Positions 35,711 to 61,080 of a stretch of DNA of 64,000 bases are shown piece by piece. The stretch covers positions 1 through 64,000 of IMG/VR virus record IMGVR_UViG_3300024496_000030; one strand, given 5' to 3'. A model generated the notes under the pieces. It was not told the DNA's origin and made no database searches. It saw nothing but the letters and a program-made list of their open reading frames with translations. Position 1 is the stretch's first letter. Every line of letters starts with the position of its first letter. Both the position numbers and the translations under genes were made by a program. The stretch is from a virus.

Positions 35711-35724
35711 CTGCTTTGCTCACC

Positions 35725-36576
35725 ATGTCACTTTCTGCTTTCCTCATTAACTTCATGAACCGCCACCGTGATCAGCTACCTGCTTACGTTGGCATTACTC
35801 TTGGCATGGGTATCGGCGGACTCCTGTGCGTTAGCTTGAACAAAGCGATTAATGCCAGGATCCTTGCAACCTGTGACAAGAACCTGAATCAAATCATCTA
35901 TATCAAGACAGCAGTAGGTGATAGCTACGGCTGTGTATCCAAGATGGTATTGAACGGGCCACCAGCTCCGATCAAACCATGAGAAAGATTTTATTCAATT
36001 CATTGATCTTAACGATCATCTTTTTGTTCTTCTGCCTCTAGTCATGACTGAACAAATGTATAGCCACGACACAATCTGGCTTCTTCTGCACAACATTCCT
36101 CTCATGGATTATGCACGCCAGGAGGAGCCAAAGCTGTGGAGAAAGTTCATGGAACTTGTTTCCAATGAAACTGCTCAAGGCTATCCCGATACATGGAACA
36201 CTACTTTCCTAATCAATAAGATTGCGGAAGATCTAGGTTCCTATCAACTGCTTCTAAATATCTGGTTGCAGATAGAGGAGCCGTTGAATGATGTTCTTAA
36301 TCCCATCCAGCGTGACTGGATTGATGCTCAACTATGAACAACTACACCTTTTATCTGCCTGGAATCAACAAGCTGACTGGTGTAAGCCAGGAGGATTGGG
36401 ATTTCCTTTGCGAACGTGCAGCAGAGAACAACGTTCTACCTGCCACGCTTGCCGCCAGGATTATCGCCAACGAGTTGGCTCAATGGCGTGATGAGATTCA
36501 TTACGCCGATCAACAGGAAGGGCTTCGTGCAAATGAAGCCATGAACCAAGAGAAAGTTATTGAAGAGATTGTTTAA
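35725..36576 (+). CDS. three early hypothetical genes (35725-35982, 36044-36337, 36334-36576)
   Basis: ORF track, coupled organisation. Confidence 0.5.
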
Positions 36577-36684
36577 TCTTTTCTTTATCTTTCCAGATGT
36601 CTGCACTTTGGGATCTAGGCCTTAGCTTAGTTCCCTTTCTGCAGGCTTCACTTGCCTGCTTTGTACACCTACCTAGACAACACC

Positions 36685-37134
36685 ATGTCTGCTGCTAACA
36701 ACGGAAACCTGGTCGGTACCATCGTGTCCGACATCATGACCAAGAATCCCAACGATTCTCTTTCGGTCACACAGTTCCGTGTTGCTCCGCTCGATGCCAG
36801 GGAAGAGGATTCTCCGCTGCCTGTCATCGCTTACAACGGTATCGGTGACAACATCGCCAAGCGCTACAACAAGGGTGACACTGTTGCCCTGACGACGCGC
36901 CTGCGTTATGTGACCTGGATGACGCCAGAAGGTGAGCCCCGTGGCCGCATGGAAGTTATTGTGACTTCCGTAAACACGGTTCGCCTTGGTCAGATCTCAA
37001 CAGCCCAACGGACTGCTGAAGCTGCTGGTGTCATTGAAGCGAATACGGTCAACAAATCGCTTCATCCTGTCGCCGCCGCTGCCACCAGGGCTCCTTATGC
37101 GCAGGAACCAACCGCTGAGGTTGTTCCTTTCTGA
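36685..37134 (+). CDS. ssb: single-stranded DNA-binding protein
   Basis: NNGNLVGTI..F.VA..KGDTV..RLRY..W...G..R..EV; C-terminal EVVPF. Confidence 0.75.
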   Translation: MSAANNGNLVGTIVSDIMTKNPNDSLSVTQFRVAPLDAREEDSPLPVIAYNGIGDNIAKRYNKGDTVALTTRLRYVTWMTPEGEPRGRMEVIVTSVNTVRLGQISTAQRTAEAAGVIEANTVNKSLHPVAAAATRAPYAQEPTAEVVPF

Positions 37135-37246
37135 GCAGAAGGTCAGTCCGACTCTTGCACTTAAACCTTCCGGGTTGGTACAGCTGTACTAGCCCGGTGG
37201 TTTTTCTGCAGGATTCATCTCCTGCACAATCCTTTGCACATCACCA

Positions 37247-37636
37247 ATGGGCCTCGATCAGTACGCCTACATCAAGTTTCAACCTGAGTATGAGAACTGG
37301 TTGTTCCTTGCGGAATGGCGCAAACATCCCAACCTCCAGGGTTGGATGGAACGCCTATGGCGCAAGAAGACGAACAGCAGTGAATCATACGAGAAAGATA
37401 CATCAATTAATGATGAATTCAATGGAGTTGAGCTTGAACTCACCCTTCAAGACATTCTTCAACTCCAAATGGACATCAGAGATAACAATCTTGATGGCGG
37501 TTTTGGCACCACAACAGGATTCTTCTTCGGTTGTAATGCCGATGATGAATACAAGTGGAAAGATCTTAGCTTCTGTGATAGAGCTAAGGTTGCTCTCAAG
37601 AATAACCACACTGTTTATTACAACAGTTCTTGGTAA
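37247..37636 (+). CDS. conserved phage protein (MGLDQY/WRKHPNLQGWM family)
   Basis: Recognisable motif, ..GFFFG..VYYNSSW. Confidence 0.7.
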   Translation: MGLDQYAYIKFQPEYENWLFLAEWRKHPNLQGWMERLWRKKTNSSESYEKDTSINDEFNGVELELTLQDILQLQMDIRDNNLDGGFGTTTGFFFGCNADDEYKWKDLSFCDRAKVALKNNHTVYYNSSW

Positions 37637-37721
37637 TCTCTCCATCAATCAAACTCACTTACCTTTCATGAACCATGAACAAATCTCTACAAGATCTCCA
37701 CCCGGTTGAGTTCATTCTTGT

Positions 37722-39123
37722 TTGCATCCTCTTTGTTGCAGCAACAATCCTCAACCTATGCACACCCTCCAAACCTACCGAAGCGAAACACCTATCGAAC
37801 GAACCGAAAGGTTCAACGAATGGTACGAACGCTACACCGAATACGAAGGTGAGCCGCTCACCATCACGGTCCACCAGGTCTACGAAAACTATGGTGGACC
37901 AGAAGAAGGAGGCTGGACCTTCCGTTGCGGTTACCCAATCGAAACCGTCTGCATCTTCTCGAAAGCGCAAGCCCTCAGGGTTCTCCACGAACTCCACGAG
38001 AAGTACGACACAGAAGAGTATGACGACGGAACCTACGACATCTGCTTAGCCCAGGGCTACGCTGAGTTCTACCCTACGGTCCGTCCTCACTACGAATGAT
38101 CTCTTTGCCTGCACCAATCATGACGATTCCTGAGAACATCTTCAAGCTTCAGCTTGATTCCATGCCTACAGAGAAAGACGCTGATCCATACGGTGATGTT
38201 CTGTTCTTCTCCAAGAAGAGTGGATGGATCATCACCAAGCTGGAGGATGCACAGGACATGATCGAGGAGTACAACTGTACTCATTGGACATGGACTCCTG
38301 AAATCCCGTCAGCTGACGACTATGAACTGGATTCCACCAGGACTGAGCAGCTTAGAAATACAGGCTGGTTGAAAGATTAATAGGATTCTCAATAAACTTC
38401 AGTTATCAAGAATCCAACTAAACCTACTCACTTCTTGAGTACATATGAACTAGCGGGCGTCATGTTTTCTTTCATGGCGTCCGCTTTATCTTGACGAATT
38501 GCATACCAAGTCTGCTTATCGCTACGGATTGCCGTAGCCTTGACTTTGCTCAGGTAGGTGATCAGTGCGCTTTGCATGACTTCCTCGTGGGATCTGTATC
38601 TATTTATACAGTACCAAGAGGTCCAGGGTATGCATAGTTCACATCGTTACACAATCATGAACGAATCTCCGTACATGGGTTGGGTTGTTCCTTATTCCTG
38701 GCAAGAGCCAGAGTATGAGGACGATGAACTCGATCAAGTTCCAGAAGATGAAAGTGATTTTGATGACGAAGGGTTATTCACTCTTCGTTAATCACACCAT
38801 CTTCATTACCACTCTGCACACTCAACATGTCCTACAACATTACCGAGATCAAGGACTTCTATACCTTGATCTACGCCATGGAGAAGCGGGTCAAGCAGCT
38901 TCTCATTGACGACAGTAAGAAGCATCAAATGGATGCAGAACCTTCCTGGTCCATGGAGATCATTGAGGATGAAATCATTCCAGCACTGGAGAAGTTCTTG
39001 GAAGTCTGGGATGATGATCCAACTCCTCAGTATCTCTACGACAACACAGGTGGTGAGCCTCCAGTGACTGCCAATGAGATGCTCAACGCAGCATGGAAGC
39101 AGCACCTGGAGATGCGCTCCTGA
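37722..39123 (+). CDS. early hypothetical genes (~37758-38099, 38096-38380, ~38657-38791, 38827-39123)
   Basis: YGGPEEGGW motif in the first; acidic small proteins. Confidence 0.55.
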
Positions 39124-39193
39124 CTACCCTTACAATATCTACATAACACAGGGCATTGGTACATCCTTACTAGTGCCCTTCTCTTTTATTCCC

Positions 39194-39472
39194 ATGAAGA
39201 CTTTCCTCACTTCTCTGTTCAGCGCCAGCATCCTCTTACTTGGTTCCTTGCCTGCCCAAGCGCAGTGGGCAATGACTTGCACCAGAGATCCAGGTTCCAG
39301 CGTCAACCTACGCAATGGCCCAAGTAAGAACAACTATGTCATCGCGTCCATCCCCAACAGTGAGTACATCCGTGCACTCAACTGGGTGTGGGGTAGCGAT
39401 CAACTCAAATGGTACCGAGTTGAATACAACGGACTCGTTGGTTGGATGCGTTCAGATTACCTTTGCCGCTAA
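39194..39472 (+). CDS. exported SH3b-domain protein
   Basis: Signal peptide ..LPAQA; VNLRNGPS..WYRVEYNGLVGWMRSDYL. Confidence 0.75.
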   Translation: MKTFLTSLFSASILLLGSLPAQAQWAMTCTRDPGSSVNLRNGPSKNNYVIASIPNSEYIRALNWVWGSDQLKWYRVEYNGLVGWMRSDYLCR

Positions 39473-39474
39473 TC

Positions 39475-39873
39475 ATGGTTAAGAAGTTAATCATTGGAGC
39501 AGCAGGACTCGGTGCCTTCATTGTTGCAGCTGCTCTTGTCTCCATCATCTCTTCCATGGTGTCAGCTTTGATACCAGGGCGCAGTCCTGATGCACCTGGC
39601 AAGCTTGATCCACCTATCGAAGAGAAGAGCAAGCAAGAGTATGCATCAACTCTCAATCCTAAAGAAGAACCTAAGACTGATGAGTCTCCTAATGAGACAC
39701 CACCATCTGCTCAACCTCAAGAAGTTTCTCCACCACAAGAAACTGCACCATCACCTGATCCTTTTCTTGTTGCATCGCCTGCCCCACGCAGCAGTGGACC
39801 TGGCAACTTTGATGCGCCGCCTGCTCCTTATGCAGGTGGTGGCATCTACCCAACTGGCCCAGGTAACATGTGA
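39475..39873 (+). CDS. membrane-anchored Pro-rich protein
   Basis: N-terminal TM helix, P/E-rich tail. Confidence 0.55.
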   Translation: MVKKLIIGAAGLGAFIVAAALVSIISSMVSALIPGRSPDAPGKLDPPIEEKSKQEYASTLNPKEEPKTDESPNETPPSAQPQEVSPPQETAPSPDPFLVASPAPRSSGPGNFDAPPAPYAGGGIYPTGPGNM

Positions 39874-39919
39874 CCTGAGCAGATGATCCCTATGCATCTG
39901 TTCCTTTGCTTTGCACCCC

Positions 39920-40708
39920 ATGAATAAACAGATGATCTTCCTTGCTCTTGCAGCTGGTTCCATTACAGCCATCACCCAGCACGGTGTGTCGCAAGTGCTC
40001 CTTGCTCACCATCAAGGACAGCACCCGACACCCTATGACCTGATGGCAAATCAGCCCCATCCTCAACCTCTCGAACAGATTGCTCCAGAGGAGGCCAATG
40101 CCACAGGGTCACTCCCCGTTGCGCCTCCTCCTGCCGTCCTTCCTGCTGACGCTGATTCAGGTCCAGGAACCATTGATGAGCCTGGATCAGCTCGTCCACA
40201 GATCCGTATAAAACAGGGTTGGTCTTGGAAGAATCTTCTTCCACAGCCAGCATCTCGTCCATCTGCATCTCTTGTCCTCACCAGGACGAAAGAACAGGTG
40301 AAGACTACCAAAGATCCGATTTGGGAACTGCAACTTGTCGATAGTAAAGGAACAGTTCTCCAAACGTTACCTGCCTTAACAGGTCGCTCCTATCGTCAAA
40401 CCGTTGATCGCCATGTCGCTGGTAACAAATCGCCTCTGCCTCGTGGCGTGTACAGCATTGACCGTTACGGCATTGCTCGTGGTCCGTTTAGTGATCCAGA
40501 ACTCGGTCAAGGTTACTGGATTCCCGTCGTCCCCTTGTTTTCCACAGGTCGCAGTGCTCTTGGATTCCATCAAGACCCCAGCTGGGGAAAACTTAACGGT
40601 GAATCCGGTACCTCAGGCTGTATCGGCCTAGAAAACAAGGAGGCAACAGCCACACTCGTTGAATGGATTCGTCACTTCAACGTTACCAAACTGACTGTCA
40701 ATTCTTGA
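39920..40708 (+). CDS. L,D-transpeptidase (YkuD/Tlde1-like) domain protein
   Basis: Signal/TM N-terminus; PLPRGVY, RSALGFHQD...GTSGCIG catalytic His/Cys motif. Confidence 0.7.
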   Translation: MNKQMIFLALAAGSITAITQHGVSQVLLAHHQGQHPTPYDLMANQPHPQPLEQIAPEEANATGSLPVAPPPAVLPADADSGPGTIDEPGSARPQIRIKQGWSWKNLLPQPASRPSASLVLTRTKEQVKTTKDPIWELQLVDSKGTVLQTLPALTGRSYRQTVDRHVAGNKSPLPRGVYSIDRYGIARGPFSDPELGQGYWIPVVPLFSTGRSALGFHQDPSWGKLNGESGTSGCIGLENKEATATLVEWIRHFNVTKLTVNS

Positions 40709-40713
40709 ATGCC

Positions 40714-42989
40714 ATGAAGACTTCATACATCAAGATTGCTTACCGTAATGAAGGTGAATGGCAAACCACAACCTTCAGGACAGATGATCCTCAGTGGCGT
40801 GAAACATTCTTGACTCTGCGCAACAGCTTTCAATCTGTCCGTATTCTGTACAGCTAACCATCGCCATGGGTAAGAAGAAAGACAAGAAGAAGCAAGAGAA
40901 GGAACAGCTTCCTGTTTCTAATCATGCTCTCAAAATTAAATACATCCTGGATCATTTCAACTTTGCCAAAGTTCAAGAGGCAATGGTTGCATTGAACTGG
41001 GTATGGCAACACATGGATGATCCAGATGATCAAACCATGCGCGTTCCTACCATTGAACGCATGAAACAAACTGCTGCACATCTCCTTTACAGCGCAGCTA
41101 CTAGCAAGGAACGTTACTTTGCAACGGGTGGATTCCATGCTCAGCGTTATGAGTATGGCGATCTCTCCTTGCAATTTGTAGTAGCTGAGTACGATACATG
41201 TGATGACACCATGTAATCATGCAAAACTATCCTCGTTTTTTTCTGCATCGAAACTCCGACAAAACACGCATTGCTAAAGCCATGAACAACATTGAATGGG
41301 AATCCAACGACAGCACCAAGGATCTCAGCAAGACTGATGCTCCTACCATGCGTCAACTAGCTGGGATGCAGCTCGTCGCCAGGATGAAAGAAGCTGCAGA
41401 CAAAGTTGGTGCTGGCTTTGTTGGTGGCTTCATTGATGAGAATGGCAACCGCTTCATGATGTCCAACATGGGCGAAGGCCACATGAAAGAACATCAAATC
41501 ATGGAGCAACTAGAACAATACAAACGTGAAGTAGAAGGAGATGCTACAGACTGGAAGTAGCTCTCAGTTACATCCTCCATGTACAACATCTGGAATGCAG
41601 CAGCCTATGAAATAACAAACATCCTCATTGATTACAACAGAAAACTAGAACTCAACCCATGGATCAAAGCAATCCGTCTCCACTGCTTCCCAGATTGGGT
41701 AGCATGGAAGACCGAACGCACCATGGGTCGAGTCGATCAACAAATTGAGCAGCTCCAGAAGGAGATGCAAATTGAACACGATAAGAAATATGTCACACCC
41801 ATCATCAGGGAGCATCAACCTGATGAGTCCAAGACGCAGCAGCTTCTAGGTGGTACTCTGCAGATCACAGCTCCCTGGTACAAACCAGAGGAGAAAAACT
41901 AATTGCGTGTACACTGCATTGAACCTGCATACAATTTACGTTAGAACCATGAAGATGCGCCAGTCCCCAGCTGATCAGAAGCAAGAACAATTCATCGAAG
42001 TACTTCGTAATGTCCATGCCACACTTACGAACCTCCTTGAGGATCCTCTCTTTATTGATAGTATTCATGGTGAACAGGAAATGGGTCTCGACCTTTCTCT
42101 TGAACTCATTGACAACATCATTGCTCGGATCGACCCCAAGGACCACAGCGCTCAGGCCGAACTGATGGATCGCCTTGAACTCACCGCTGTTGATGCTGAT
42201 TGAGTCTCATCAGACTTATTACACTGTCCAACAAGAGCCGTCTGCTTCTAGCTAGTGCTTCTAAGCTATTCATGCCGTGGTCCTCCCTGTCATGGGTGTT
42301 GGATCACGGCTTCTTTTTGCACACCATCCAATGTTCTCACCCTCAGAATACTTAACAAACCTTAGGCAGATCAGTCTCCTCAATGGACTGGTCACGCCAG
42401 TAGGTCAACTCCCTTCCATTCCTCCCATCCCAAAGATGGAATCAGCTACAGCAGGAATCCCTGTTGTAGCAACTGTTCCAGCAGCGCCAGAATGTAATGA
42501 CATCATCAATGCTGTTGCATCCTCTCCTCTTGCAATCAATCTGGCAGCACTGTTTGCAGCTGGATTGATTCTTACCATTCTTATCAAGAAGTACGGACCA
42601 TCCATCCTTGCCTGGTTCCGTGACAAGATGCAGCGCTTCCTTGCTTCTATCCGTAGCAAGATCAGTAAGCGACGTAGCAATCTGCTACAACCTTCTGTCT
42701 GCACTGTCGTGGTGATGGGCTGATGTACCGCACAAAAGCACATCACTTTTACAAAGGAAACCAGAAGTTCCTCAGGACTAAACAGTTCTGGACTGTCTGG
42801 CGCAAGGTCAGGATGGTCATTGGCATCATCTATGACAGTTGCTCCGTCATTTTGGTACTCATGAGTCTCGACCGTGTGTACAAATTCAAGAGCTGGAGGG
42901 TTGTTAAACCCTGGCAGATCGCTACTTTGGTCGAGCGTTTACCCAAGCTGTTCCGTACCCTTAGACACCACTTCACCTATGGGATCTAA
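40714..42989 (+). CDS. run of small hypothetical genes (40714-40857, 40866-41216, 41219-41560, 41579-41902, ~41949-42203, 42331-42723, 42723-42989)
   Basis: ORF track, tight packing. Confidence 0.5.
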
Positions 42990-43052
42990 CCGCTTCCAGG
43001 GTTCATAAACTGATAGGAAAAACTTAAGGTTACCTACAGCTTTTCTTATCGT

Positions 43053-43098
43053 TCCATTGCTACGCTGGTTTGCCTACAAACCCTGTCGTAGCAATGGA
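43053..43098. repeat. imperfect inverted repeat
   Basis: TCCATTGCTACG (43053-64) / CGTAGCAATGGA (43087-98), inner GGTTTG/CAAACC. Confidence 0.7.
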
Positions 43099-43370
43099 TT
43101 TCAGTCTTACAAGACACTGCACTTGGATAGGTTTGTGCCCTTCATAATTAATTACCGGATGGAAAATATTTACCATGGAATCCAATATGTCGCCAGCAGG
43201 AAAACTTGCCTGGGCAATCCTTGCTCAACGTCCTGACGGCAAGAGTGAAGTCATCAAGATCACCAATCACGAAGAAGCCGATCAAGCTGTCAAAGAGAAT
43301 CCCACTCTTTGGTACAAGAGCGGCCCATTCATGCTAGTTTGAATCCACTCCAGGACACATCCTCGTCACT

Positions 43371-44166
43371 GTGTCCTGGGGAATCCCCTTCATTCCAATG
43401 AAACTTCCTGTGACTGCTTACATCGTCATGCTTCATCATGCTGATGTAGGTACATTTGCTCCAGCTTTCCCCAATCTTGACGACGCTATTGAGTTCTCCA
43501 ATGCAATGCGCTTGGTCAACGATCAACTTGCTGTAGCTGAACCGGTGCCTTTGGTCTCCACGATGGCTCCAGGAGGAAGCAAAGTTTTAGATTGGGTCGA
43601 GCATTGATTCAACCTAATTAAATACATAAGAATCTGTGTTATCTTGTATCGAGGTAACACAGATTTTTTATGGCCGTCGTTCTATCAGTTAGTATCCCCG
43701 ATGAGATGCACGCCAGGTGGAAATCATCTGGATTTGATATTAGCCCCAGTGCGATTTTCCAAAATGCTTTGGAGTCACAGCTCACTGAAACCAATCAACA
43801 TCTCACCTACTGGAGCAATCGTGCCTTGTCTGCAGAAAAGAAACTAAAGACCATCGAGAAGTTACTGTCTGCTAGTGAGAAGGAGATTAAAAAATTCCTT
43901 TACTTTGAAGACATGTGATCTTCCTAACAATTGATTGGTAACCTGTTCGGTAGACTACAATTAACAAATGCATCTGCATTTCTATGCCTGACAGAGGTTA
44001 CCTTTTCTTAAGCGACGATCAGCGACTTGATGTTGCAAGCTTGCTAACAACGCTTAAAGGTCTCGGTATTGTCCGAGATGAAACAGATTTTCAAAGGTTT
44101 GTCACTGGTTGTTTCTTCCGTGGTCTTTATGATTACAAAAGAGATCTAACTCGCAGCGACTGCTGA
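43371..44166 (+). CDS. hypothetical genes (~43398-43607, 43670-43918 possible RHH/CcdA-like, 43984-44166)
   Basis: 43670: VVLSVSIPDEMH..ISPSAIFQNAL resembles a ribbon-helix-helix. Confidence 0.45.
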
Positions 44167-44394
44167 ACAACTAACCAAGAGAATCATTAAGACAATATAA
44201 ATAATACGATAAACAATTGAATCCATTTGATCAAGCTACCAGTACTGCTGCGTAGCTTCATTTTATTTTGCAAATAAATTTAGAAAAGCTTCTCTTGGAG
44301 AACGGCCCACCGCCACGTAAGAATATTAGATATATACAAAGTAATAACTATACCAATAACACCTAACTAAATACATATGTACCATCCCATAGAT

Positions 44395-44472
44395 AAAAAA
44401 ATGGACCGGGCACCACCCCAGTCCAGAATCTGCTTTGCACACACAGCCTTCAGGATTCCTTTCTGAAGCTGC
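44395..44472 (-). ncRNA. candidate trans-acting sRNA (~78 nt)
   Basis: TAGACT -10 at 44484-44479; 5' hairpin GCAGC-TTCAG/CTGAA-G-GCTGT; unpaired GUGUGCAAAGCAGAUUC; terminator TGGACTGGG-GTGGTG-CCCGGTCCA-T7 with a G-U pair valid only on the minus strand. Confidence 0.7.
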
Positions 44473-44473
44473 G

Positions 44474-44502
44474 TTGTCAGTCTAGTCAAGTCCCGCTAGT
44501 AT
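44474..44502 (+). promoter_or_regulatory. sigma70-type promoter for the 44541 operon
   Basis: TTGTCA (44474-79) - 17 nt - TAGTAT (44497-502). Confidence 0.6.
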
Positions 44503-44540
44503 GCGCAAGCAAACGGCGCAACCTCATTTGCACACCCACC

Positions 44541-44966
44541 ATGTCTCCATTTAATTTCCAGCCTGTTCAACTGCTTGAACTCTCCGACGCTGACACTCCG
44601 AGCATTGATGTGCAGGATGGACAGCTGATCCTCACCGCTCAACGTGGTGAAGAGAAGATCCGAATCACTGCTCCTCTGCGTCAGGTTCTTCCCCAGGTGG
44701 CAGCAACAACTGTCAAGGGTCCGTCTCGATTGAAAGGGCTTCACCTACCTGGTGGCGATAAGCGTGTTGGTGAGCTGAACGGCATGGCCAAGCTCAACGA
44801 ACAAGCAGTTCGTGAAATCCGTCTCATGATCAGCGATCCGAAGTTTATCAAGAGCTTCCGCACACGCCACGCTCTCTGCTTAGAAATTGCTAAGGCTTAT
44901 AACGTTCATCCCGCTACGGTGAAGAACGTTATTGATAACGTCAGCTGGAAGCACGTCAAGATCTAA
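44541..44966 (+). CDS. DNA-binding protein with NUMOD-like/HTH C-terminus
   Basis: GELNGMAKLNEQAVREIR..IAKAYNV...V..VI....WKHV. Confidence 0.6.
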   Translation: MSPFNFQPVQLLELSDADTPSIDVQDGQLILTAQRGEEKIRITAPLRQVLPQVAATTVKGPSRLKGLHLPGGDKRVGELNGMAKLNEQAVREIRLMISDPKFIKSFRTRHALCLEIAKAYNVHPATVKNVIDNVSWKHVKI

Positions 44967-45358
44967 TGGAAAAGACTTACAGCATCTTGATCCAATTTGG
45001 TGATGGAAAGCCTGTAGCTTCTAAGATCAAAGCAAAGGATGGAGTCGATGCTCAGGACAAAGCATTACGCTTAAACCCTGGTGCACGCTCCATCCGCATC
45101 ACCGGTGTCTTAGAAGTCCACCTTCCAAAGCTAAAGCCTCTTCCTAAACCAAAACCAAAGGCTGCTGTTCATCCACTCTTTACAGATGTTGATGATGCAG
45201 TGGTTACGGATTACGTTAGGAACACTTCTCCTGATGTGCGGTTACAGATTTGTCACCAGCTGCGGAAGGAAGGCCTGACCTATAAGGCCATCGCTAAACA
45301 ATTGGATATGGGTGAGACAACAGTTCGCACCTGGATCAAAAACACACTGCCCTCCTAG
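44966..45358 (+). CDS. HTH-domain protein
   Basis: LRKEGLTYKAIAKQLDMGETTVRTWI. Confidence 0.7.
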   Translation: MEKTYSILIQFGDGKPVASKIKAKDGVDAQDKALRLNPGARSIRITGVLEVHLPKLKPLPKPKPKAAVHPLFTDVDDAVVTDYVRNTSPDVRLQICHQLRKEGLTYKAIAKQLDMGETTVRTWIKNTLPS

Positions 45359-45371
45359 TGAGGGCTTTTTC
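45349..45371 (+). terminator. intrinsic terminator
   Basis: GCCCTC-CTAGT-GAGGGC-TTTTT. Confidence 0.6.
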
Positions 45372-45388
45372 TTTGCACATTTCACACC

Positions 45389-46969
45389 ATGGAATTCCGT
45401 CTTCCCACTGAACTTGCAAACAAACTGGTTGATTATGACCAGACCCTCAAACAAATCAAACCCAAGAAGGAACCAAAAGAAGCCAGCACCAGGCTCAAGC
45501 GCAGAACAAAGCTAGCCTTCCCTTGTCCTGACATCTTCTTTGATCTCACAGTAGATGAGATCCATGAGATCTACGAAGAGTTCTGCTTTCGCCCTGCTCC
45601 GATGCGTTATCACACGGTACGCAGCAATGTAAATCCCATGCTTACTCGTTATCTCGTTGCATGGGATAAGTGTTCACAAACTAAACAAGAGATCTGGTAT
45701 TGCTGGAAGGTTGGTGATAAAGATTGTCCCATCATATTTAGAACATGGGATGAATCAGATCTAGATGATGAGTACCACGAATTCCGTGCTGATCAATCAT
45801 TGAAAGCTTTAAATAAAGCTCAAGATAATCCTTTTACTGTTAGATATAAAGCAGAACAAGAACGTTATGAAGCAGTCTCTTGTTTTATATCTGCTGTCTG
45901 TAATCAAGTTGAATTGCCTGAAATCAATAGAGCTTTACATGTAACAGGTAAATTAAATATGTACGGTATTACTAAATTCTTTTATGAGATGTTTTTCTCT
46001 GCTAAAGATGAGCAATCTTTTTATCCTGCTCAGTGGTTATCAAAACAGAGAATGCACGCTATGACTGAGTGCATGATTGATCTTAAAACAAATAGCACCA
46101 TCATTAATAGTAAGTTTTACCAGAACGAAGTAAGAAAAGAAGCTAAGTGTTTAGAGGAAAAAGTATTAACTGGATATATTAATCCTCAGTCTCTTGTTCA
46201 TAAACTAAGTTACATTTATTTGTTTCTTACTGTATTTCCTGATGAGTATGATCGTTCCATTAATCTTTATACTCAACTAAGTCAATATCATTTTTCTTCT
46301 CATTGGTCTACTTGGGCAATCTTTGATCGAATTACACGTGTAAGAATTGGATTTAGATCTAAATTTATGCAGTGGTTTACTTCTAAAGTTACACCACAAA
46401 TGTTTATCAATTGGATCCTTGAAGAAGTAGAAATTAAACAGAAGCGTGACTATGACACTACCATCCGCGACACAATGGAAATGTTGATTAAAGCTAGAGA
46501 ACGAATTGATTACCTAAGTAATCCCAATCCTGAGTATCTCAAAAAACCTAAGCGCTGGCGTCTCCAGGAGGTTCATGATCATTACGTTGGCATCACTCTT
46601 CAGATGGATAACCAGATGAAGAATCTACCAACAGATTTGATTCCAGAACCAATTACTTTTGAAACAGAGCTTGGAACCATCCGTATGTTCCAGCCTTCCA
46701 CCAATCACGAGGTCATCCGCTGGGGTAAAGCAGTCCGTAACTGCGTTGGTTCAGCTGGCTATGACGAGCGAGTGCTCAAGCGCAGCGCTTTCCTTGTGTT
46801 TGCTGAACGCAACGAGAAGCCATGGCTAACCTCTTTGCTTACCCTCAACATGGGGATGCTCCACGTGGGACAGACGGTCTCACCGTTCAATGCCAACCTA
46901 GAACCTGGTGAGCGCCAGGTGTATGAGCGGTGTTTACAGCAAGCCATTGGTATTACTGAGCAACAGTAA
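45389..46969 (+). CDS. PcfJ-like domain protein
   Basis: LQEVHDH...WGKAVRNCVGSAGY C-terminal motif. Confidence 0.6.
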   Translation: MEFRLPTELANKLVDYDQTLKQIKPKKEPKEASTRLKRRTKLAFPCPDIFFDLTVDEIHEIYEEFCFRPAPMRYHTVRSNVNPMLTRYLVAWDKCSQTKQEIWYCWKVGDKDCPIIFRTWDESDLDDEYHEFRADQSLKALNKAQDNPFTVRYKAEQERYEAVSCFISAVCNQVELPEINRALHVTGKLNMYGITKFFYEMFFSAKDEQSFYPAQWLSKQRMHAMTECMIDLKTNSTIINSKFYQNEVRKEAKCLEEKVLTGYINPQSLVHKLSYIYLFLTVFPDEYDRSINLYTQLSQYHFSSHWSTWAIFDRITRVRIGFRSKFMQWFTSKVTPQMFINWILEEVEIKQKRDYDTTIRDTMEMLIKARERIDYLSNPNPEYLKKPKRWRLQEVHDHYVGITLQMDNQMKNLPTDLIPEPITFETELGTIRMFQPSTNHEVIRWGKAVRNCVGSAGYDERVLKRSAFLVFAERNEKPWLTSLLTLNMGMLHVGQTVSPFNANLEPGERQVYERCLQQAIGITEQQ

Positions 46970-46993
46970 GATAAAGCAACATTCATTGTTGCT

Positions 46994-48288
46994 ATGGAAA
47001 CCTCCACTGATGCAGGTCTCACCGTTACCTTTGACGATGAGACCGGCGTTTTTTCTTTTGAATGGGATGAGGAGACTCATCCTGAGTACAACTTTATTAA
47101 AGATTTCACCGATGAAAGTTTTGCTACCATGATGCGCAACTACATGGAGAGCTTGGATCTCCCTCCCAATGTCACGGAAGCCAGCGACGATTCAACCGAA
47201 GTTTCAGCCGGGTGATCGGGTAGCAGAGCGCCCAAAAGCATCCCTCATCTCTGCTATCCGCAAAGAAGCACGGGAGATTGTTAAAAAGTACACAGGTCAC
47301 CGCCGTGGTGTTGTAGTTGGCAACACCATCAAGGTGTTGACTTCAAGCAATGGCCGCACCAGCAGGGTGTGCTACGTCAGCATCTTGTGGGACGGATTGA
47401 AAAGTCCTTCTGAACATTCACAGATGCGAATTTGTTTAGAAGAAGAGTACGACAAAATCCGTCAGGATCACTATGCATTGACTGAGTAGATCTACACACT
47501 TCTCTTTCTCATGACTGACAACAATCATCCGATTACTCCTCCGCCTGAGCTGTTACGAGAATGGGTAGGCAGTCAGCACGGCTACCTCAATGCTGCCCGC
47601 TGGGGCGCTGATCAGGAGCTGGAGGCGTGCTGTGCGGACCTGCGAATGGTTCTTGGACCCAACCAAGCTGATTGGCTGCGCTCCGTGCGCCGCCCCAAGC
47701 CGCCGAGCTTGAAGGAGCAGGCGTTAGGAGCCCTCTATGCCATAGCCACAGGGGCTGATGACACCAGAGAGTTTCACCAAGATCTGGAAACCATTAAGCA
47801 AGCTCTTGAATCCCTGCCCGATTAGTCAACATCACTTCTATGCGTAATTACTTTCTTGCCACACTCGCAATCCTTACCCTTGTGGTCGGATACGTATTTC
47901 TTCTGCAGTCTGCCAATGATCGCATTGAAGCCAGGTGTGCTGCCAATGGCGGTCAAGTGCTAACGCAACCTGGCGATGTGTCCAGATGTTTGCGCCCTGC
48001 CCAGTAGTCAGACCCACTTATCACTTTTCAATCATGAGCGGCAACGCTAAGCGTGAGTTTAAAGTTGGTGACCGTGTTAAGTACAACAAGAAAGGAATGG
48101 CTGGTCCTCTTTCTAACAACAAACCACACCAAGTGTTTGCTCCACGGTTAGGAGAAGTGAAGGGCATCTTCATTAAAGAAGATGGCAAAGGTTACAAACG
48201 CAAGTGGATTCAGGTTCTCTGGGATGGAGCAGTACGCCCCAGTGATCACGCCAGTCAGCGGCTGGTGTTTGAGCATGAAGAATGTTGA
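46994..48288 (+). CDS. hypothetical genes (46994-47215, 47169-47489, 47511-47825, 48034-48288)
   Basis: 47169 and 48034 are paralogues (F..GDRV ... LWDG..PS.H..R); 47511 has the cyanophage HPITPPPEL motif. Confidence 0.55.
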
Positions 48289-48327
48289 CTAACCCTGTAA
48301 GCTAGGTAACAACGAAGGAATGAACCA

Positions 48328-48981
48328 ATGAGCATTGTTGAACTTGTTTGGGCTACACCAGATGCTGAAGCACTGATCACTAAGATGGCACGCGTTTCAG
48401 CGCCAGCCAATGAGAACAACATGGAGACTGCTCCTAAGTTGCTCCGTTACTTAATCAAACATGCTCATTGGTCGCCATTTGAAATGGCAAACATGTGTAT
48501 AGAGATTCATACAACTCGTGCAATCTCAGCCCAGATCATCCGTCACCGTTCATTTTCCTTTCAAGAATTTAGTCAGCGCTATGCAGATATCAATCTGTTA
48601 GGTTCAACTTACGTGCCGCACTTGCGTCGCCAGGATACAAAAAATAGGCAGAACTCTGTTGATGATCTTGATGCAGAGATGACCGGTCAATATTACCGGC
48701 GCATCAGTACTCTCTTTGAAGAAGCTGAGCATCTGTATAAAGAGATGGTGAGTTCTGGTGTAGCAAAAGAATGTGCACGTAACATTCTTCCGCTTGCATC
48801 TCCTACCCGTATTTATATGAATGGCTCCTTGCGTTCATGGATTACTTATATTGCTCTGCGCGAAAAGCACGGAACGCAGATGGAGCATATGCAAATTGCA
48901 AAAGATGCTAAGAAGATCTTCTGTGGTCAGTTTCCTACGATTGCAGAAGCTCTAGGTGGCTCTGAAGAATGGACCATCTAA
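48328..48981 (+). CDS. thyX: FAD-dependent thymidylate synthase
   Basis: HWSPFE, RHRSFSFQEFSQRY, AKECAR.ILP, GSLRSW..Y..LR. Confidence 0.95.
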   Translation: MSIVELVWATPDAEALITKMARVSAPANENNMETAPKLLRYLIKHAHWSPFEMANMCIEIHTTRAISAQIIRHRSFSFQEFSQRYADINLLGSTYVPHLRRQDTKNRQNSVDDLDAEMTGQYYRRISTLFEEAEHLYKEMVSSGVAKECARNILPLASPTRIYMNGSLRSWITYIALREKHGTQMEHMQIAKDAKKIFCGQFPTIAEALGGSEEWTI

Positions 48982-49067
48982 AAGATAAAGTATAAAGATT
49001 AATAACATTTAATTACCTGGGCACCGCAAGGGTAAGTCCCAGCTTTGTTGTATTTGCACACACCACG

Positions 49068-50012
49068 ATGGACAACAAACTACCCAAAGTTCCTGAGAAA
49101 GCTCTTGAAGCTTTGAAGGATGGCATTCAATCTGTTCTTGATTCTAAAGATTGGACTGGTTTTCTTTCTGCTATTCGGTGCATACATGACTATAGTTTCA
49201 ACAATAAGTTGTTGATTATGATGGCGCAACACAAGCGTGGATGGGCGTTTAGTCCATTTGTTGCTGGCGCCAGGAAGTGGAACGACAAGTTCAATCGGCA
49301 ACTTAAGAAAGGTGAGTTCACCAATCCCATCTGGATCCTTGCTCCAGTACTCATTAAGAAGACGGACGAGAATGGACAAGTCCTTTGTCGTGCGGATGGA
49401 ACGCCTGAGCAAGTGCCAATTCGCTTTCGTGGGGTGAAGGTCTATGACCATCATCAAACAGAGGGAGATCCAATCCCTGAACCAGACACCACTGGCATGA
49501 TGGCACAGCTAGAGGGAAACATCTCCTCCCATGTCATGGATGGTATGGTTGCCGTTGCTAAGCGCCGTAGCGTTGAGGTGCAGCGTTGTTCTGCAGCTGA
49601 TCTTGGTGCTGCGCTAGGCCGCTGCTGGTTTGCCAATCAAGGGCGGGCCAGCAAGATTGAGATCAGTTCAGAACTGAATGAGATCACTGCTGTCAGTGTC
49701 ATGGCCCATGAGCTGGGTCACGCCATCCTCCACAACCGTGATGAGTACCAGGAACATGACTCCTCCTCCATCAAAGAACTGGAAGCTGAGTCAGTTGCTT
49801 ATCTGGTTTGTTCTCATTACGGCGTGGATCTTGGTTGTCGCAGCTTTCAGTACATTGTTCATCACAACACTGCGTCTGATGATGTCGTTGCAGATCTTTT
49901 GAAGTCAGGTGATCGGATCTTCCGTGCCTACGAGGAGATCATTAAGACCACTGATGAATACCTCACGACAGGGCCAGCTCCAGTGGAAGCTAAGATGCTG
50001 GCTGCTGTCTGA
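49068..50012 (+). CDS. ArdC-like ssDNA-binding/metalloprotease-fold protein
   Basis: YSFNN.LLI..Q, W...RQLKKGE..IWILAP, VYDHHQTEG, AHELGH..ELEAESVAY. Confidence 0.75.
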   Translation: MDNKLPKVPEKALEALKDGIQSVLDSKDWTGFLSAIRCIHDYSFNNKLLIMMAQHKRGWAFSPFVAGARKWNDKFNRQLKKGEFTNPIWILAPVLIKKTDENGQVLCRADGTPEQVPIRFRGVKVYDHHQTEGDPIPEPDTTGMMAQLEGNISSHVMDGMVAVAKRRSVEVQRCSAADLGAALGRCWFANQGRASKIEISSELNEITAVSVMAHELGHAILHNRDEYQEHDSSSIKELEAESVAYLVCSHYGVDLGCRSFQYIVHHNTASDDVVADLLKSGDRIFRAYEEIIKTTDEYLTTGPAPVEAKMLAAV

Positions 50013-50111
50013 GTTCAGATCAAGCCAGGCTTCACGAGGCCTGGCTCTAACCGCTTCTGAAGTGCGGGTAACGCCTCATGAAGTAAATCAAAAGGCAACG
50101 AAACTCTACCA

Positions 50112-50411
50112 TTGATGAAAGGTTTTGTCAGCTCAACGCAACCCACACGCACTGCTAGTTATTGGGTTGCCTGTTACTCAAAAGAAGATGAAGATGTTCC
50201 GATGGGTATTCACAAAAAAGTTTTGAAGTATAAGGTAGGACAGGATAAAGAGAAACTTATTATTCGGTACTGCCACCAGTTGTTTGATCTCAACCGCACC
50301 ATCTGGGATGTGCTTGTGCACCAGGGGCCATCAGAAGTTCCAGAACACGGCGATCAAGTCGTGATGCGCATGAGTCGTGATCAGTTCCGTGGCTCGACAA
50401 TTGTTCGTTAA
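50112..50411 (+). CDS. hypothetical protein
   Basis: ORF track. Confidence 0.5.
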   Translation: MMKGFVSSTQPTRTASYWVACYSKEDEDVPMGIHKKVLKYKVGQDKEKLIIRYCHQLFDLNRTIWDVLVHQGPSEVPEHGDQVVMRMSRDQFRGSTIVR

Positions 50412-50428
50412 TCCTTTATAATTTTTTT

Positions 50429-50716
50429 GGTTCTGATCAGACCCTCGTGGCCACGAGAACGTCCAGTTACTTTCAGGCGTAACTGGATACCTGATATCAC
50501 AGAGTGGAAGCTGTGATGTCAACGATGAAGCAGAAAGAGGAATGGGGGCCGACCCTCATTTAAAACCCGTGAACGGGATCCTCTTCTGTTAAAAATTTTT
50601 GTAGGGGCGCAGCCCCACCGATAGCTACACGGCAGGGCTGTTCACTTACCAGCAGAAGGAAACCACAAAAACTTCTGCTCCCCAGGGCCTGCCGTGGTTC
50701 TTCTACGGCCCCATCC
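50429..50716 (+). ncRNA. candidate large structured RNA
   Basis: TATAAT at 50417-22; at least 7 helices with plus-strand G-U pairs; no plus-strand ORF in the track. Confidence 0.55.
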
Positions 50717-56743: not shown

Positions 56744-56748
56744 TTGCC

Positions 56749-58091: not shown

Positions 58092-58115
58092 TCTAGACTG
58101 CTTCTGGAATGTTCA

Positions 58116-58140
58116 GCCGCTCCTTCGGGGGCGGTTTTTT
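58116..58140 (+). terminator. intrinsic terminator
   Basis: GCCGCTCC-TTCG-GGGGCGGT-TTTTT. Confidence 0.8.
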
Positions 58141-58384: not shown

Positions 58385-58474
58385 CTTGACATGGCATAAT
58401 GTTTAGTCTAAGCATTAAACATGCGAAGTAAAGTTTGAGTTAGACTATCTTTATATTCTGATCCACTAGCAACT

Positions 58475-59089
58475 GTGGCAATCCCTAAAGCAGATCCCAA
58501 AAGTTTTCTAAACCGTTATATCGGTAAAAACGATCAAGAGTCTGGTAAAGAACGTAGAGAGCGCCGCCAGGAACGACGCGAAAAGAAAAGAGAGCGTCAG
58601 TACAATGCTTCTATTCCTCAGGAATATAAAGATAAGTATGGTTCTACTGCTGGATCTATGTACGAAAGGGATAAGCTTGCCCAACGTGACGTCTCTACTG
58701 CAATGACAAAGCAAGGCGTTACTCCACTAGAAATAGATCGTTATGGTAGTGATGCTTTAAATGTGGCACGTGCACGCCAGTTAAACGAGCAGAAGAAGCA
58801 GATTGCAATGGATACTCTTACTCCAGGGATGGAGGATCGTCAAAAGGCGTTAGATGAAAGCTTCCGTTTAGCACAAACCGCCGGCATTCCAGGTGCTCGT
58901 GACTCTAAGCAAGCAACTAAGGATTTCTACACTAAAGAATTTGCTCGGTTTGGTAATAGCGCAAATGTTTTTGGTATGAAAGATCTGCTTGAAATGCGTA
59001 ACCGGGGCGAAAGCGAAGGAGATATTCGCCGTATTGCTTTAACCATTGGTAGCGTTGGTCCACTTGCTCGTAAAGAGCTTGGAATTTAA
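58475..59089 (+). CDS. charged protein, internal-protein-like
   Basis: Own TAGACT at 58441; SFLNRYI motif. Confidence 0.55.
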   Translation: MAIPKADPKSFLNRYIGKNDQESGKERRERRQERREKKRERQYNASIPQEYKDKYGSTAGSMYERDKLAQRDVSTAMTKQGVTPLEIDRYGSDALNVARARQLNEQKKQIAMDTLTPGMEDRQKALDESFRLAQTAGIPGARDSKQATKDFYTKEFARFGNSANVFGMKDLLEMRNRGESEGDIRRIALTIGSVGPLARKELGI

Positions 59090-59137
59090 TTAACGTCTTG
59101 CTAGACTATTTTCTATAACACATAGACTATAACAACT

Positions 59138-59944
59138 GTGGCTGATACTGCACCAACTACTCCTACCAAGTCACTGTCTCAGCAGTTCCTTGACAAATAC
59201 TTGGCTGATCCTGAGAAGAACCCTTATGGTCAGTTCTACTCTCAAGCAGCTGGTAATTCAGTAGTTGGTCAGTTGCCACGTTCTTTTGAGAAGTACGGAG
59301 CATTACCTGATCCTTTAGCTCTTGCTAAACAGTTGCAAGGAGCAGGTGACTCTCGCGCTGTACTAAAAGCTTCTCAAGCTGCTGTTAATAAATTTAGTGA
59401 GCAACGTGCTGCTAATTATGCAGCTTATGAAGAACCTTACAAAAAAGCTGAAGCATTGTTCCGCCAGCAAAGGCAAACAGGTTTTGCTACTCCAGAAGCA
59501 GAACAAGAAGCTCGTCAAGGTTTAGCTGCTGTTCGTGAAGCCACTTTCATTCCTTACTTAGCCAACCGTGGTTATCTCCAGGCTCAAGAACAGTTGACAA
59601 GAGATGCAAGTACTCTGGCTAAGCGTGAATCCAGGATGTCCCGCATCAGTGAACTGCTGTCTAGCCGTGGTGCTAGTCAAGAAATCATTGATGCAAGTTT
59701 AGATCCTTTCAAGAAAATTCAGAAACGCCAAGAAAAACGAGCAGCTACTCGCTACGGAGCTGTTAAAGATGTTGGACAAGGTGGCACTGTTGAACTTGGT
59801 GATCGTTTAACAGCTGGAGAAAGTATTAAAGGAATGATGAACAAAGCTGTAGATGAAGCATCTGATCGCCGTTGGCGCAAACAATACCGTGATGGTAAAG
59901 CTCCTGGTCAGGGGGCTGGCTACGAATCCCGATCTAAAGCTTGA
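59138..59944 (+). CDS. Ala/Gln-rich protein, internal-protein-like
   Basis: Own TAGACT at 59102; QFLDKYL motif. Confidence 0.55.
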   Translation: MADTAPTTPTKSLSQQFLDKYLADPEKNPYGQFYSQAAGNSVVGQLPRSFEKYGALPDPLALAKQLQGAGDSRAVLKASQAAVNKFSEQRAANYAAYEEPYKKAEALFRQQRQTGFATPEAEQEARQGLAAVREATFIPYLANRGYLQAQEQLTRDASTLAKRESRMSRISELLSSRGASQEIIDASLDPFKKIQKRQEKRAATRYGAVKDVGQGGTVELGDRLTAGESIKGMMNKAVDEASDRRWRKQYRDGKAPGQGAGYESRSKA

Positions 59945-59995
59945 CGGCAACAACTGAAAACCTAGACTGGATCTGGGTTTTCAGCTCTTGCTACA

Positions 59996-60127
59996 ATGGC
60001 AAAGAAATCTTTCAGCGGCACCATTCACAAGGAGTCTGTGCCTAAACGGACTTCTATTGGCCATGGCCGGCGCAAGCGTGGCTCGTTTAAGAACAGCAAA
60101 AAGTACAGGGGGCAAGGAAAAGCATGA
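59996..60127 (+). CDS. 43-aa basic protein (KKYRGQG family)
   Basis: MAKKSF..PKRTSIG.G..KKYRGQGKA; TAGACT at 59963. Confidence 0.65.
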   Translation: MAKKSFSGTIHKESVPKRTSIGHGRRKRGSFKNSKKYRGQGKA

Positions 60128-60183
60128 CCTTCTAGACCTGGAGTAAGTCTTAAAACTGCTCCTGCACACACCACCTGACCGTA

Positions 60184-61056
60184 ATGACCGTAACCGAAGC
60201 GCTGCTTTCCGATGCTCAGCGTCTTGTGTATGGACGCAGAAGAATTATTGACACGCTCTATCAAGAAGATCCAGATAAGTTCAAAGTTTTACAGGCTACT
60301 GATATTCAATCCATCTCACTCCAGGATGATTTGGTTTGTCTGGATCTAGCAGACACCCAACTCTATATAGAGCGGGCAAAAATCCTCAAAAATTTTTGGG
60401 AGCACCGCACGCGTACCCCTTCCTACTTTGATTACAAGGTCTGGAGCCAGGCATTGAGCAGCCGCCCCTGGCAAGGAACACCTGTTGCAGCCTTGGATTA
60501 CGGTCCGTCCCAAGCAATTGATGCGCTGGAGCCTTTGCTGGGACGCCCGCCTCGAATTCAAACGGATCGTGATGGAGTACAGAAGTTGTACTTTGTTATG
60601 GAGAAAGAAGAAATGTGCAGCTGTGAATCATGGAATCAAATGCATGTTCACAGGCATGAACTTTCTGATGAGTTCTCTACTTATACCGACATAAAATTCA
60701 AGCCTATTTGTAAGCATTTACAATGGTGTTCTGCCAACATGTTGCTTCATGCAATTCGGTTTGAATCCAGGCAGAACGATAAAGAATATAACCCAAGAAT
60801 CTGTGTCTACTATTTTGATCATCGTCGCGGTTTGTTACTGTATCGCGTTACTTATGACGGTGTAAAAACAGGTGGTCAGTGGCTACCTGTTGGTGGGTGG
60901 AAAGAAAAAGCTGTCTATGACAGCAACCACATGCCAACCGGAGCTTGCTGGCAAACCTTCACCGATGCTTTAACTCAAGATCCTCCCTTCAAACTATCGC
61001 CCTATTCCCATAGCCTGGGTGCTCTGATGAATAGCACCTGCTCTAAACAGTCCTGA
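60184..61056 (+). CDS. SWIM zinc-finger protein
   Basis: CSCESW...PICKHL. Confidence 0.6.
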   Translation: MTVTEALLSDAQRLVYGRRRIIDTLYQEDPDKFKVLQATDIQSISLQDDLVCLDLADTQLYIERAKILKNFWEHRTRTPSYFDYKVWSQALSSRPWQGTPVAALDYGPSQAIDALEPLLGRPPRIQTDRDGVQKLYFVMEKEEMCSCESWNQMHVHRHELSDEFSTYTDIKFKPICKHLQWCSANMLLHAIRFESRQNDKEYNPRICVYYFDHRRGLLLYRVTYDGVKTGGQWLPVGGWKEKAVYDSNHMPTGACWQTFTDALTQDPPFKLSPYSHSLGALMNSTCSKQS

Positions 61057-61080
61057 TTGCACACCACCGCATTACTCACC

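Follow-up and report, generated by a model that had tools for sequence, protein, structure and literature searches.

The Early Region and Its Leader Sequences

The 64,000-nucleotide stretch of DNA examined here, hereafter called the window, consists of bases 1-64000 of a viral genome record in IMG/VR (IMGVR_UViG_3300024496_000030) that is 83,116 bp long and rated 97% complete. The minus strand up to ~33,900 carries structural genes, and the plus strand from ~33,900 to past 64,000 carries replication or 'early' genes. Eleven of the early genes are preceded by short, related sequences that had been noticed in an earlier, model-made inspection of the DNA (the sequence-only reading). In this report we argue that these sequences are probably the target sites of a small RNA (sRNA) encoded by the phage itself, whose predicted gene lies on the minus strand within the same early region.

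The closest isolate is Synechococcus phage S-EIVl, a cyanophage from polar fresh water, whose large terminase (TerL) shares 64% identity with the one encoded in the window. Matches to PHROG families in the window include a terminase, a portal-like protein, a major head protein, and a family A DNA polymerase. The sequence occurs in DNA runs from river metagenomes, and contigs from river metatranscriptomes reveal that RNA libraries contain the early region as well. Relatives were gathered by way of the DNA polymerase, at identities from 95% down to 65%, and whole records were available for nine. We refer to the genome of the window as G000 and to its relatives as G001-G007 or by L numbers, of which L005 and L006 denote S-EIVl. 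A megablast search with positions 44000-50000 yielded no match among phage records, and the 526-aa PcfJ-like protein encoded at 45389 has no relatives in the viral contigs searched.

All 11 strings reported by the sequence-only reading are found where it placed them, each with an ATG downstream. They reside 1-16 nt 5′ of start codons that are backed by conservation. Two of the corresponding gene calls (37247 and 38827) were doubtful, and in both cases protein conservation in relatives favors the called frame over an overlapping open reading frame (ORF). Specifically, the 37247 frame is 92 and 82% identical in relatives, versus 76 and 54% for the overlapping 37155 frame. Likewise, the plus-strand 38827 frame is 83, 83, 66, and 39% identical, versus 61-65 and 49% for the antisense ORF.

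The same reading stated that genes with the motif lack a GGAGG Shine-Dalgarno (SD) sequence while several structural genes carry one, and counting bears this out. SD-like tetramers (GGAG, GAGG, AGGA, or AAGG) occur in 0 of 11 motif leaders, 6 of 55 early leaders, and 14 of 40 late leaders (early versus late, Fisher p = 0.006). Early leaders are also C-rich and G-poor.

A Predicted Small RNA Gene Complementary to the Leader Sites

A scan for terminators found a 9-bp stem followed by U7 on the minus strand at 44425-44395, where there is no minus-strand gene nearby. The sole ORF at this locus encodes 40 aa and runs through the terminator. Close by is a copy of the motif that we call the master (CTGCTTTGCACACAC, 44430..44444 as read on the plus strand), which sits in a 374-nt gap, between a minus-strand sigma70-like promoter and the minus-strand intrinsic terminator, and which differs from the other copies in not being followed by a gene. 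All 11 leader sites are sub-windows of this master. Based on the terminator scan, the sequence, and predicted folds, we propose an sRNA gene of ~78 nt at 44395..44472 (minus strand). Its predicted parts are a 5′ hairpin (~44446-44472), a linker that includes the seed (~44426-44446), the terminator hairpin (44402-44425), and the U7 run (44395-44401). The complement of the master forms the core of the predicted seed, and the linker holds GUGUGUGCAAAGCAG, the exact complement of the extended motif including its optional CTGC and trailing AC.

The predicted sRNA promoter is of the sigma70 type and spans 44479..44508 (minus strand), with a -35 element TTGCGC (44508-44503), an 18-nt spacer, and a -10 element TAGACT (44484-44479). 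The RNA is predicted to start near 44472. A sigma70-like -35/-10 pair lies upstream of the seed on the minus strand in every lineage, in the form TTGACC-18-TAGATT in G001, G005, and L019, TTGCAG or TTGCAA with TAGATT or TACAGT in G002 and G003, and TTTACA-17-TACAAT in G004. Across lineages the -10 element keeps the form TAnnnT (TAGACT, TAAACT, TAGATT, TACAGT, TACAAT), and the -35 element is TTGACC in three distant lineages. A promoter scan also predicts a plus-strand promoter for the operon that begins with gene 44541 (TTGTCA-17-TAGTAT, 44474..44502), whose -10 form TAnnnT is kept in relatives. The two predicted sigma70-type promoters share the same 35 bp (44474-44508) and face in opposite directions, and this layout is kept in distant relatives.

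The terminator stem is 99% paired across 12 lineages, with changes on both sides at all nine pairs, and its covariation score is 0.78, compared with 0.26 in shuffles, of which none in 500 reaches 0.78. Because the G-U pairs of the stem become C-A mismatches on the plus strand, the minus-strand form of the hairpin is favored by 1.5-11 kcal/mol in each of the nine lineages tested, and the U-run is present on the minus strand only. Although the stem differs among the 12 lineages, the loop sequence GUGGU (within GGUGGUG) is the same in all of them. Similarly, the seed is nearly invariant in the 12 lineages, with its GUGU fully so. The 5′ hairpin is variable, being different in G002, G003, G005, and L019 and absent from G001 and G004, where the seed would be located at the extreme 5′ end of an RNA of ~46 nt. 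The version in L021 carries a compensatory change from A-U to G-C.

Every lineage with sequence for the region has the predicted unit, and it lies directly upstream of the 44541 ortholog in 10 of the 10 relatives in which this could be checked. A covariance model of the seed and terminator (model R1) finds exactly one copy per genome. Its matches in the L026/L028/L032 lineage are weaker, and S-EIVl has no match. No Rfam family, including C4, matches positions 33000-64000 at E ≤ 1, and a focused scan of 44350-44560 gives only chance-level matches (E ~1-4) to other families, again without C4.

Leader Sites Are Complementary to Overlapping Parts of the Predicted Seed

Pairing of each leader with the predicted RNA was computed for all 11 sites, which are on the plus strand (energies in kcal/mol). 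The site at 35711..35723 ends 1 nt before ATG 35725 of a gene for an 85-aa protein and offers nine contiguous pairs plus three past a mismatch (-21.8). It is retained in G001, G006, and G007. The SSB leader carries a site at 36656..36668, 16 nt before ATG 36685, with 13 pairs including one G-U (-21.8), and the duplex would cover the last four bases of a hairpin together with its T-run. A strong terminator-like hairpin (37170-37197) also precedes the site at 37232..37241, which lies 5 nt before ATG 37247 of a gene for a 129-aa protein (-17.2). The weakest site, 38812..38821, has seven contiguous pairs (-14.0) and is located 5 nt before ATG 38827 of a gene for a 98-aa protein, whose G001 ortholog has 10 pairs. 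The leader of a YkuD-like gene offers 12 pairs, one of them G-U, at 39905..39916, 3 nt before ATG 39920 (-18.8), and its ortholog in G007 has 13 pairs to the master of G007 itself.

Farther along, the site at 42315..42324 follows a hairpin and T-run and lies 6 nt before ATG 42331 of a gene for a 130-aa protein (-19.5). Next to the predicted sRNA gene, site 44527..44535 is positioned 5 nt before ATG 44541 (-15.0) and, given the predicted promoter at 44474..44502, lies in the 5′ untranslated region. This site is retained in seven genomes, with its own variant in each. Gene 44541 encodes the first of two small putative DNA-binding proteins (44541 and 44966), for which the helix-turn-helix assignment is weak. 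The site at 45371..45380 is directly 3′ of a terminator with a T5 run (45349-45365) and 8 nt before ATG 45389 of the PcfJ-like gene (-16.9). A site with 11 pairs (49053..49063) precedes ATG 49068 of a gene for an ArdC-like anti-restriction protein by 4 nt (-20.3). The site that the sequence-only reading began at 60163 reaches upstream to 60158 across a small bulge, such that 60158..60171 offers nine pairs plus five, 12 nt before ATG 60184 of a gene for a 290-aa protein (-22.2). Finally, the site at 61057..61064 has eight pairs and is 16 nt before ATG 61081 of a Gam/Gp157-like gene (-15.4). Six of the target products therefore carry at least a tentative name (SSB, the YkuD-, PcfJ-, ArdC-, and Gam/Gp157-like proteins, and the putative DNA-binding protein 44541), and the other five have no assigned function.

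A further candidate target lies outside the window at 70705-70715 of the same genome (CAGGATCTGCT), 1 nt before ATG 70717. Its predicted partner is the 3′ part of the linker, with which it would form 11 pairs including one G-U (-17.1).

The sites slide along the master rather than sharing one fixed element. Site 35711 corresponds to its left part and sites 60163 and 49053 to its right part, such that 35711 and 60163 have only TGC in common. The single shared motif proposed originally is real as a set of strings, and it lacks a fixed common core; instead, the sites match different overlapping parts of a master of 15-20 nt. Such sliding fits RNA pairing better than a fixed protein-binding site.

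Enrichment in Early Leaders

The exact 9-mer TTTGCACAC has four copies in the 83-kb genome, all of which are on the plus strand, intergenic, and in the early block. When one mismatch is allowed and both strands of the whole window are searched, 23 copies are found and 27 are expected, which is no enrichment. Because the copies are nevertheless placed as described, the signal must be positional and strand-specific.

To score leaders, we counted regions from -35 to +3 that have at least nine contiguous pairs (at most one G-U) with the complement of the master copy. Contiguous-pair counts replaced thresholds on duplex energy as the target criterion. On the early strand, 8 of 71 leaders qualify, compared with 1 of 69 late leaders and 9 of 654 windows from early coding sequence. 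Shuffled versions of the master match 0.55 leaders on average and four at most, and none of 200 shuffles reaches eight. In de novo k-mer counts, too, the top words of early leaders are TTGCACA, TTTGCAC, and CACACC, and those of late leaders are different (AATAAC, ATTAGG).

Early leaders of the relatives, scored for at least nine pairs, are likewise enriched in G006 (10 of 72), G002 (4 of 48), G003 (4 of 50), G007 (4 of 61), G001 (3 of 57), and also G004. No late leader qualifies in any relative. Among the 36 leaders scored as targets in the eight genomes, 28 are separated from the gene before them by 25 nt or more.

Leader Sites Vary with the Master of Their Own Genome

Because the linker differs between lineages on both flanks of a GCACAC core, covariation between leaders and linker provides an independent test of pairing. 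When genomes and masters are permuted, only 3 of 40,320 permutations do as well as the true assignment in leader matches of at least 9 nt, and only 2 of 40,320 for matches of at least 10 nt.

This relationship is seen in the SSB leader, which matches the master of its own genome in G000, G001, G003, G004, G006, and G007. The leader sequence is CTGCTTTGtACAC in G000, CCTGCTTTGCACAC in G007, TGCTTTGtACACTC in G001, TCCTTTGtACAC in G004, and TGTACACAC in G003, each corresponding to the version of that genome (a lower-case t is opposite G in the predicted RNA). Leaders of G004, including that of the 60184 ortholog, carry ATCCTTTGCAC, which is the flank of the G004 master with its private ATCC. The 60184 ortholog therein uses the left part of the linker, whereas the gene in G000 uses the right part. 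Similarly, G006 has private targets that match its own CCCTTTGCTTT flank, and the linker variant ACACACGCACACA of L019 is matched by a leader site identical over 13 nt that stands directly before CCACCATG.

A Proposed Model for Regulation by a Trans-Acting Phage RNA

We consider it probable, though far from certain, that the motif sequences are target sites of a phage-encoded, trans-acting sRNA, which most likely blocks the initiation of translation. The sequence-only reading had offered three mechanisms: sRNA targeting, a translational regulator, and an endonuclease. The first is favored over the two protein-based options because of the conserved promoter-seed-terminator unit on the minus strand and the covariation of the leaders; nothing was found that speaks for a regulator protein or an endonuclease.

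According to this model, an RNA of ~78 nt would be read from the minus strand, from ~44472 to 44395, using a promoter that is back to back with that of the 44541 operon. The RNA would consist of a 5′ hairpin, a mostly unpaired linker, and an intrinsic terminator. Different early mRNAs would pair with different overlapping parts of the linker, 7-13 nt in length, at positions 1-16 nt 5′ of the start codon in SD-less, C/A-rich leaders that are probably kept unstructured by this composition. The duplex would keep the 30S subunit off the leader, and it may also trigger decay. Occlusion of the initiation region is the most likely mode of action because the duplexes end 1-16 nt before the AUG, within the region that the 30S subunit must hold. 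In this manner the phage would turn down its SSB, ArdC-, PcfJ-, YkuD-, and Gam-like genes, the two putative DNA-binding proteins, and translationally coupled genes, to which we infer that control of the first cistron may spread. That the motif genes are regulated as a set, that the RNA is made and pairs in vivo, and that the effect is repression rather than activation are presumed. Activation, or interference with adjacent terminators, may be the effect instead.

A more elaborate version is possible, and we advance it only tentatively. The complement of the invariant terminator loop, CACCA/ACCAC, is present in 16 of 28 target leaders but in only 22 of the 283 remaining leaders that follow a genuine intergenic gap (p = 1e-9), and the overlapping word ACACC is just as enriched in target leaders. 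These words could represent a second contact with the sRNA or a favored initiation context. In the former case recognition might be in two parts, in which the linker seed pairs with the motif and the loop GGUGGUG pairs with CACCA(C) between the motif and the AUG. Together with the overlapping divergent promoters, such an arrangement might form an RNA-based early-to-late switch that co-evolves with its targets across a clade of freshwater cyanophages.

Several observations weigh against regulation by an sRNA. The sRNA promoter is a consensus match only. In minimum free energy folds, part of the seed is placed in a weak mini-hairpin of 3 bp, and its mean unpaired probability is 0.4-0.6 (these folds cover four genomes). 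Four metatranscriptomes, available as contigs that carry no information on strand, ends, or level, have no listed piece over 44395-44528, which proves nothing either way. Leader enrichment is missing from G005 (1 of 67), and three of the eight genomes show no individual preference for their own linker, with G001 and G002 not being best matched by their own. A bias toward G-U-compatible substitutions beside the matches was sought and no signal was seen (21 versus 19, then 8 versus 4). Although the 11 sites have duplex energies of -14 to -22 kcal/mol, compared with leader means of -8 to -10, energy thresholds discriminate poorly between leaders and coding windows (18% versus 9% at ≤ -14 kcal/mol). 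Moreover, the TTTG of the motif and its CA-rich tail are also to be expected from a terminator T-run followed by an unstructured SD-less leader, and repeated leader cassettes could in principle be homogenized within a genome.

Alternative Explanations

The sites might serve as RNA or DNA operators for a phage protein, with 44430-44444 being merely another site. This protein could be a translational repressor or endoribonuclease resembling T4 RegA or RegB, or else the product of one of the putative DNA-binding genes, 44541 or 44966. The strand specificity of the sites and their proximity to start codons accord with this idea, as does the fact that expression of the sRNA rests on prediction. In addition, the promoter of the operon for the putative DNA-binding proteins has a copy on either side, an arrangement that would suit an autoregulatory operator. 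We nonetheless regard an operator as improbable. A six-frame search of the 83-kb genome gives no match to RegA (PF01818) or RegB (PF10715) at E ≤ 1, and no Hfq homologue was found in the genome. A protein would be expected to see a fixed core, which the sites do not have, and their lineage-specific flanks co-vary with the master over up to 14 nt. The conserved minus-strand terminator and promoter would also be left unexplained.

Alternatively, the motif could be a feature that acts only in cis, with no trans factor: the T-run of an attenuator or terminator joined to a G-poor, C/A-rich, unstructured leader for SD-independent initiation, with its likeness to the master arising from composition or from homogenization of cassettes, as with the PeSL cassettes discussed below. 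Terminator-like hairpins are indeed enriched in 33500-50500 (31 found versus 13.6 +/- 4.9 expected), several end in the TTTG of the motif, and the TTTG of several sites is at the same time the T-run of the hairpin upstream. Once aligned on the core, many of the sites turn out to stand behind a hairpin and T-run. S-EIVl, which has neither motif nor sRNA, also has C/A-rich early leaders, and CACC or CACCA before the ATG is strongly enriched in motif leaders. This explanation probably does account for the T-runs and CA-rich tails around the sites. As an account of the motif itself we think it unlikely. Composition does not yield exact 9- to 13-mers, as the counts with shuffled masters reveal, and orthologous leaders change in step with the master of each lineage. 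Gene conversion between cassettes would require longer tracts than these matches, which span 8-14 nt and have unrelated flanks, and no terminator stands ahead of sites 44527, 61057, and 60163.

A third proposal, that the motif marks the 5′ ends of transcripts, either as the stretch transcribed first from a phage-specific promoter or as a site of RNA processing, is in our view very unlikely. In one metatranscriptome, two RNA contigs start at motif sites (36656 and 44529), and this provides a weak hint in its favor; however, contig ends at depths of 2.5-11 are not transcript ends, and other RNA contigs bridge sites 35711, 39905, 42315, and 49053. Some sites in G001 and G004 directly follow -10-like hexamers (TAAACT, TACTAT), yet there is no conserved -35 or -10 element upstream of the sites, and the conserved sigma70-type promoter of 44541 puts the motif at ~+18 to +27. 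In favor of this proposal, site 35711 follows a hammerhead-like self-cleaving element; against it, the distance from motif to ATG varies among sites. Marking of 5′ ends can also be compatible with an sRNA, for example through cleavage guided by the duplex.

Finally, although the motif occupies the SD position in SD-less leaders and its CACACC complements GGUGUG, which belongs to helix 45 (3′ strand) in a cyanobacterial 16S rRNA, we find it hardly credible that it is an alternative ribosome-binding sequence pairing with 16S rRNA outside the anti-SD, given that helix 45 is base-paired in the ribosome, that spacing to the ATG ranges over 1-16 nt, that the motif varies between phage lineages along with the phage locus while the rRNA is constant, and that the 16S rRNA of Trichodesmium (not the host) offers only G-U-rich matches of 7-8 nt in the chance range (14 found; shuffled motifs, mean 8.9, maximum 27). 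A sigma-54 -12 element (TTGCA) was also considered and dropped, since the aligned sites show by eye no consistent TGGCAC and no -24 GG placed 12 nt upstream of the GC of TTGCA, and at 44541 the motif is downstream of the conserved sigma70-type promoter.

Other Features near the Sites

Directly upstream of site 35711 is a hammerhead-like element at 35644-35710 (plus strand), in which GGAC, GAAAC, a 9-bp stem, GUC, a stem-loop, CUGAUGA, and GUCC follow one another in this order. The element is conserved in G001 with changes in both stems. No hammerhead family of Rfam matches it, even in a focused scan of 35600-35760 at E ≤ 10.

Several of the terminator-like hairpins in 33500-50500 are less than 25 nt before a start codon, so that expression of the genes behind them has to depend on read-through or on processed RNA.

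To the left of the sRNA terminator, 44167-44394 is AT-rich and ORF-free and contains repeated words resembling ATAGATA or ATACATA. Similar stretches are found in relatives, and the region is conceivably an origin or a promoter cluster. Farther left, 43112-43598 has the highest RNA-contig depth in the region covered (15-26), in three river metatranscriptomes, and contains small ORFs with no assigned function. All three contigs end at 43598 and share the same nine differences from the window, indicating a variant strain.

The late genes on the minus strand (1-34000) have a recurrent TAGAATAA(C)-like word 20-40 nt before their starts, as at 5995, 9095, 20428, 27890, and 31408, which is possibly the -10 region of a late promoter. 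In S-EIVl, early genes share an upstream word ~ATGAC(A/G)TTAAACTGCT followed by a C/A-rich leader; the word occurs before the early genes ending at 25869, 29121, 30466, 33554, 38756, and 42957. In the window, site 60163 has a similar TAAAACTGCT ahead of it, as does one site in G001. S-EIVl was set aside as an experimental stand-in, having neither the motif upstream of its early genes nor the sRNA.

Comparison with Known Systems

The CI RNA of satellite phage P4 is comparable to the c4 antisense RNA of phages P1 and P7. The latter is a small phage RNA that blocks translation through a short complementarity near the ribosome-binding site, using complementary stretches that are exposed outside its stems (PMC12197685). 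In the same way, the sRNA predicted here would be a small phage RNA that pairs at or near the ribosome-binding site of phage mRNA. Unlike c4 and CI, which are processed from the operon they control, it would have its own promoter and terminator on the opposite strand. Whereas the role of c4 and CI is in the immunity of temperate elements, with one or two targets, the predicted RNA would have ~11 or more dispersed targets, and the window shows no sign of lysogeny functions.

Bacterial sRNAs of the RybB, GcvB, and Spot 42 type have a conserved single-stranded seed of ~10-15 nt, a Rho-independent terminator, and a multi-gene regulon. The predicted RNA resembles them as an independent short transcript that would use overlapping parts of a seed to form 7-13 bp in initiation regions. 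It differs in that both the regulator and the regulon would be phage genes, the leaders lack an SD, the phage has no Hfq, and there is no Rfam match. Cyanobacterial Hfq is atypical.

Phages are already known to encode short trans-acting RNAs that pair with mRNA leaders, including PreS of lambda, VpdS of VP882, and DicF (PMC12197685). These RNAs have mainly host targets and depend on Hfq, whereas the targets proposed here are the early genes of the phage itself. Phage sRNAs known so far are mostly cis-antisense, directed at the host, or in control of one or two immunity genes, and a 2025 review of the subject, which covers cis-antisense, host-directed, and c4 RNAs, lists none whose regulon consists of early genes of the same phage (PMC12197685).

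The PeSL cassettes of T4-type phages likewise feature repeated hairpin modules between small early genes. PeSL elements consist of a promoter and hairpin repeats that are thought to drive recombination, whereas here a string of 7-13 nt follows varied hairpins and, unlike PeSL, the conserved string is complementary to a single-copy RNA gene.

The same regulatory logic, a collective post-transcriptional shut-off of early genes, is found in phage T4, where RegA is a translational repressor and RegB is an endoribonuclease that cuts GGAG in early leaders. In T4 a protein recognizes a fixed signal, whereas in the present case the signal shifts its position along a predicted complementary RNA and varies in concert with that RNA. 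If our interpretation is correct, a virulent-looking cyanophage holds a dozen of its own early genes under a single trans-acting RNA, as an RNA counterpart of RegA and RegB whose seed-target co-evolution is visible in uncultured relatives. Such a system would offer a handle on the control of SD-less leaders in cyanobacterial systems and on early-gene shut-off in phages without a known protein regulator.

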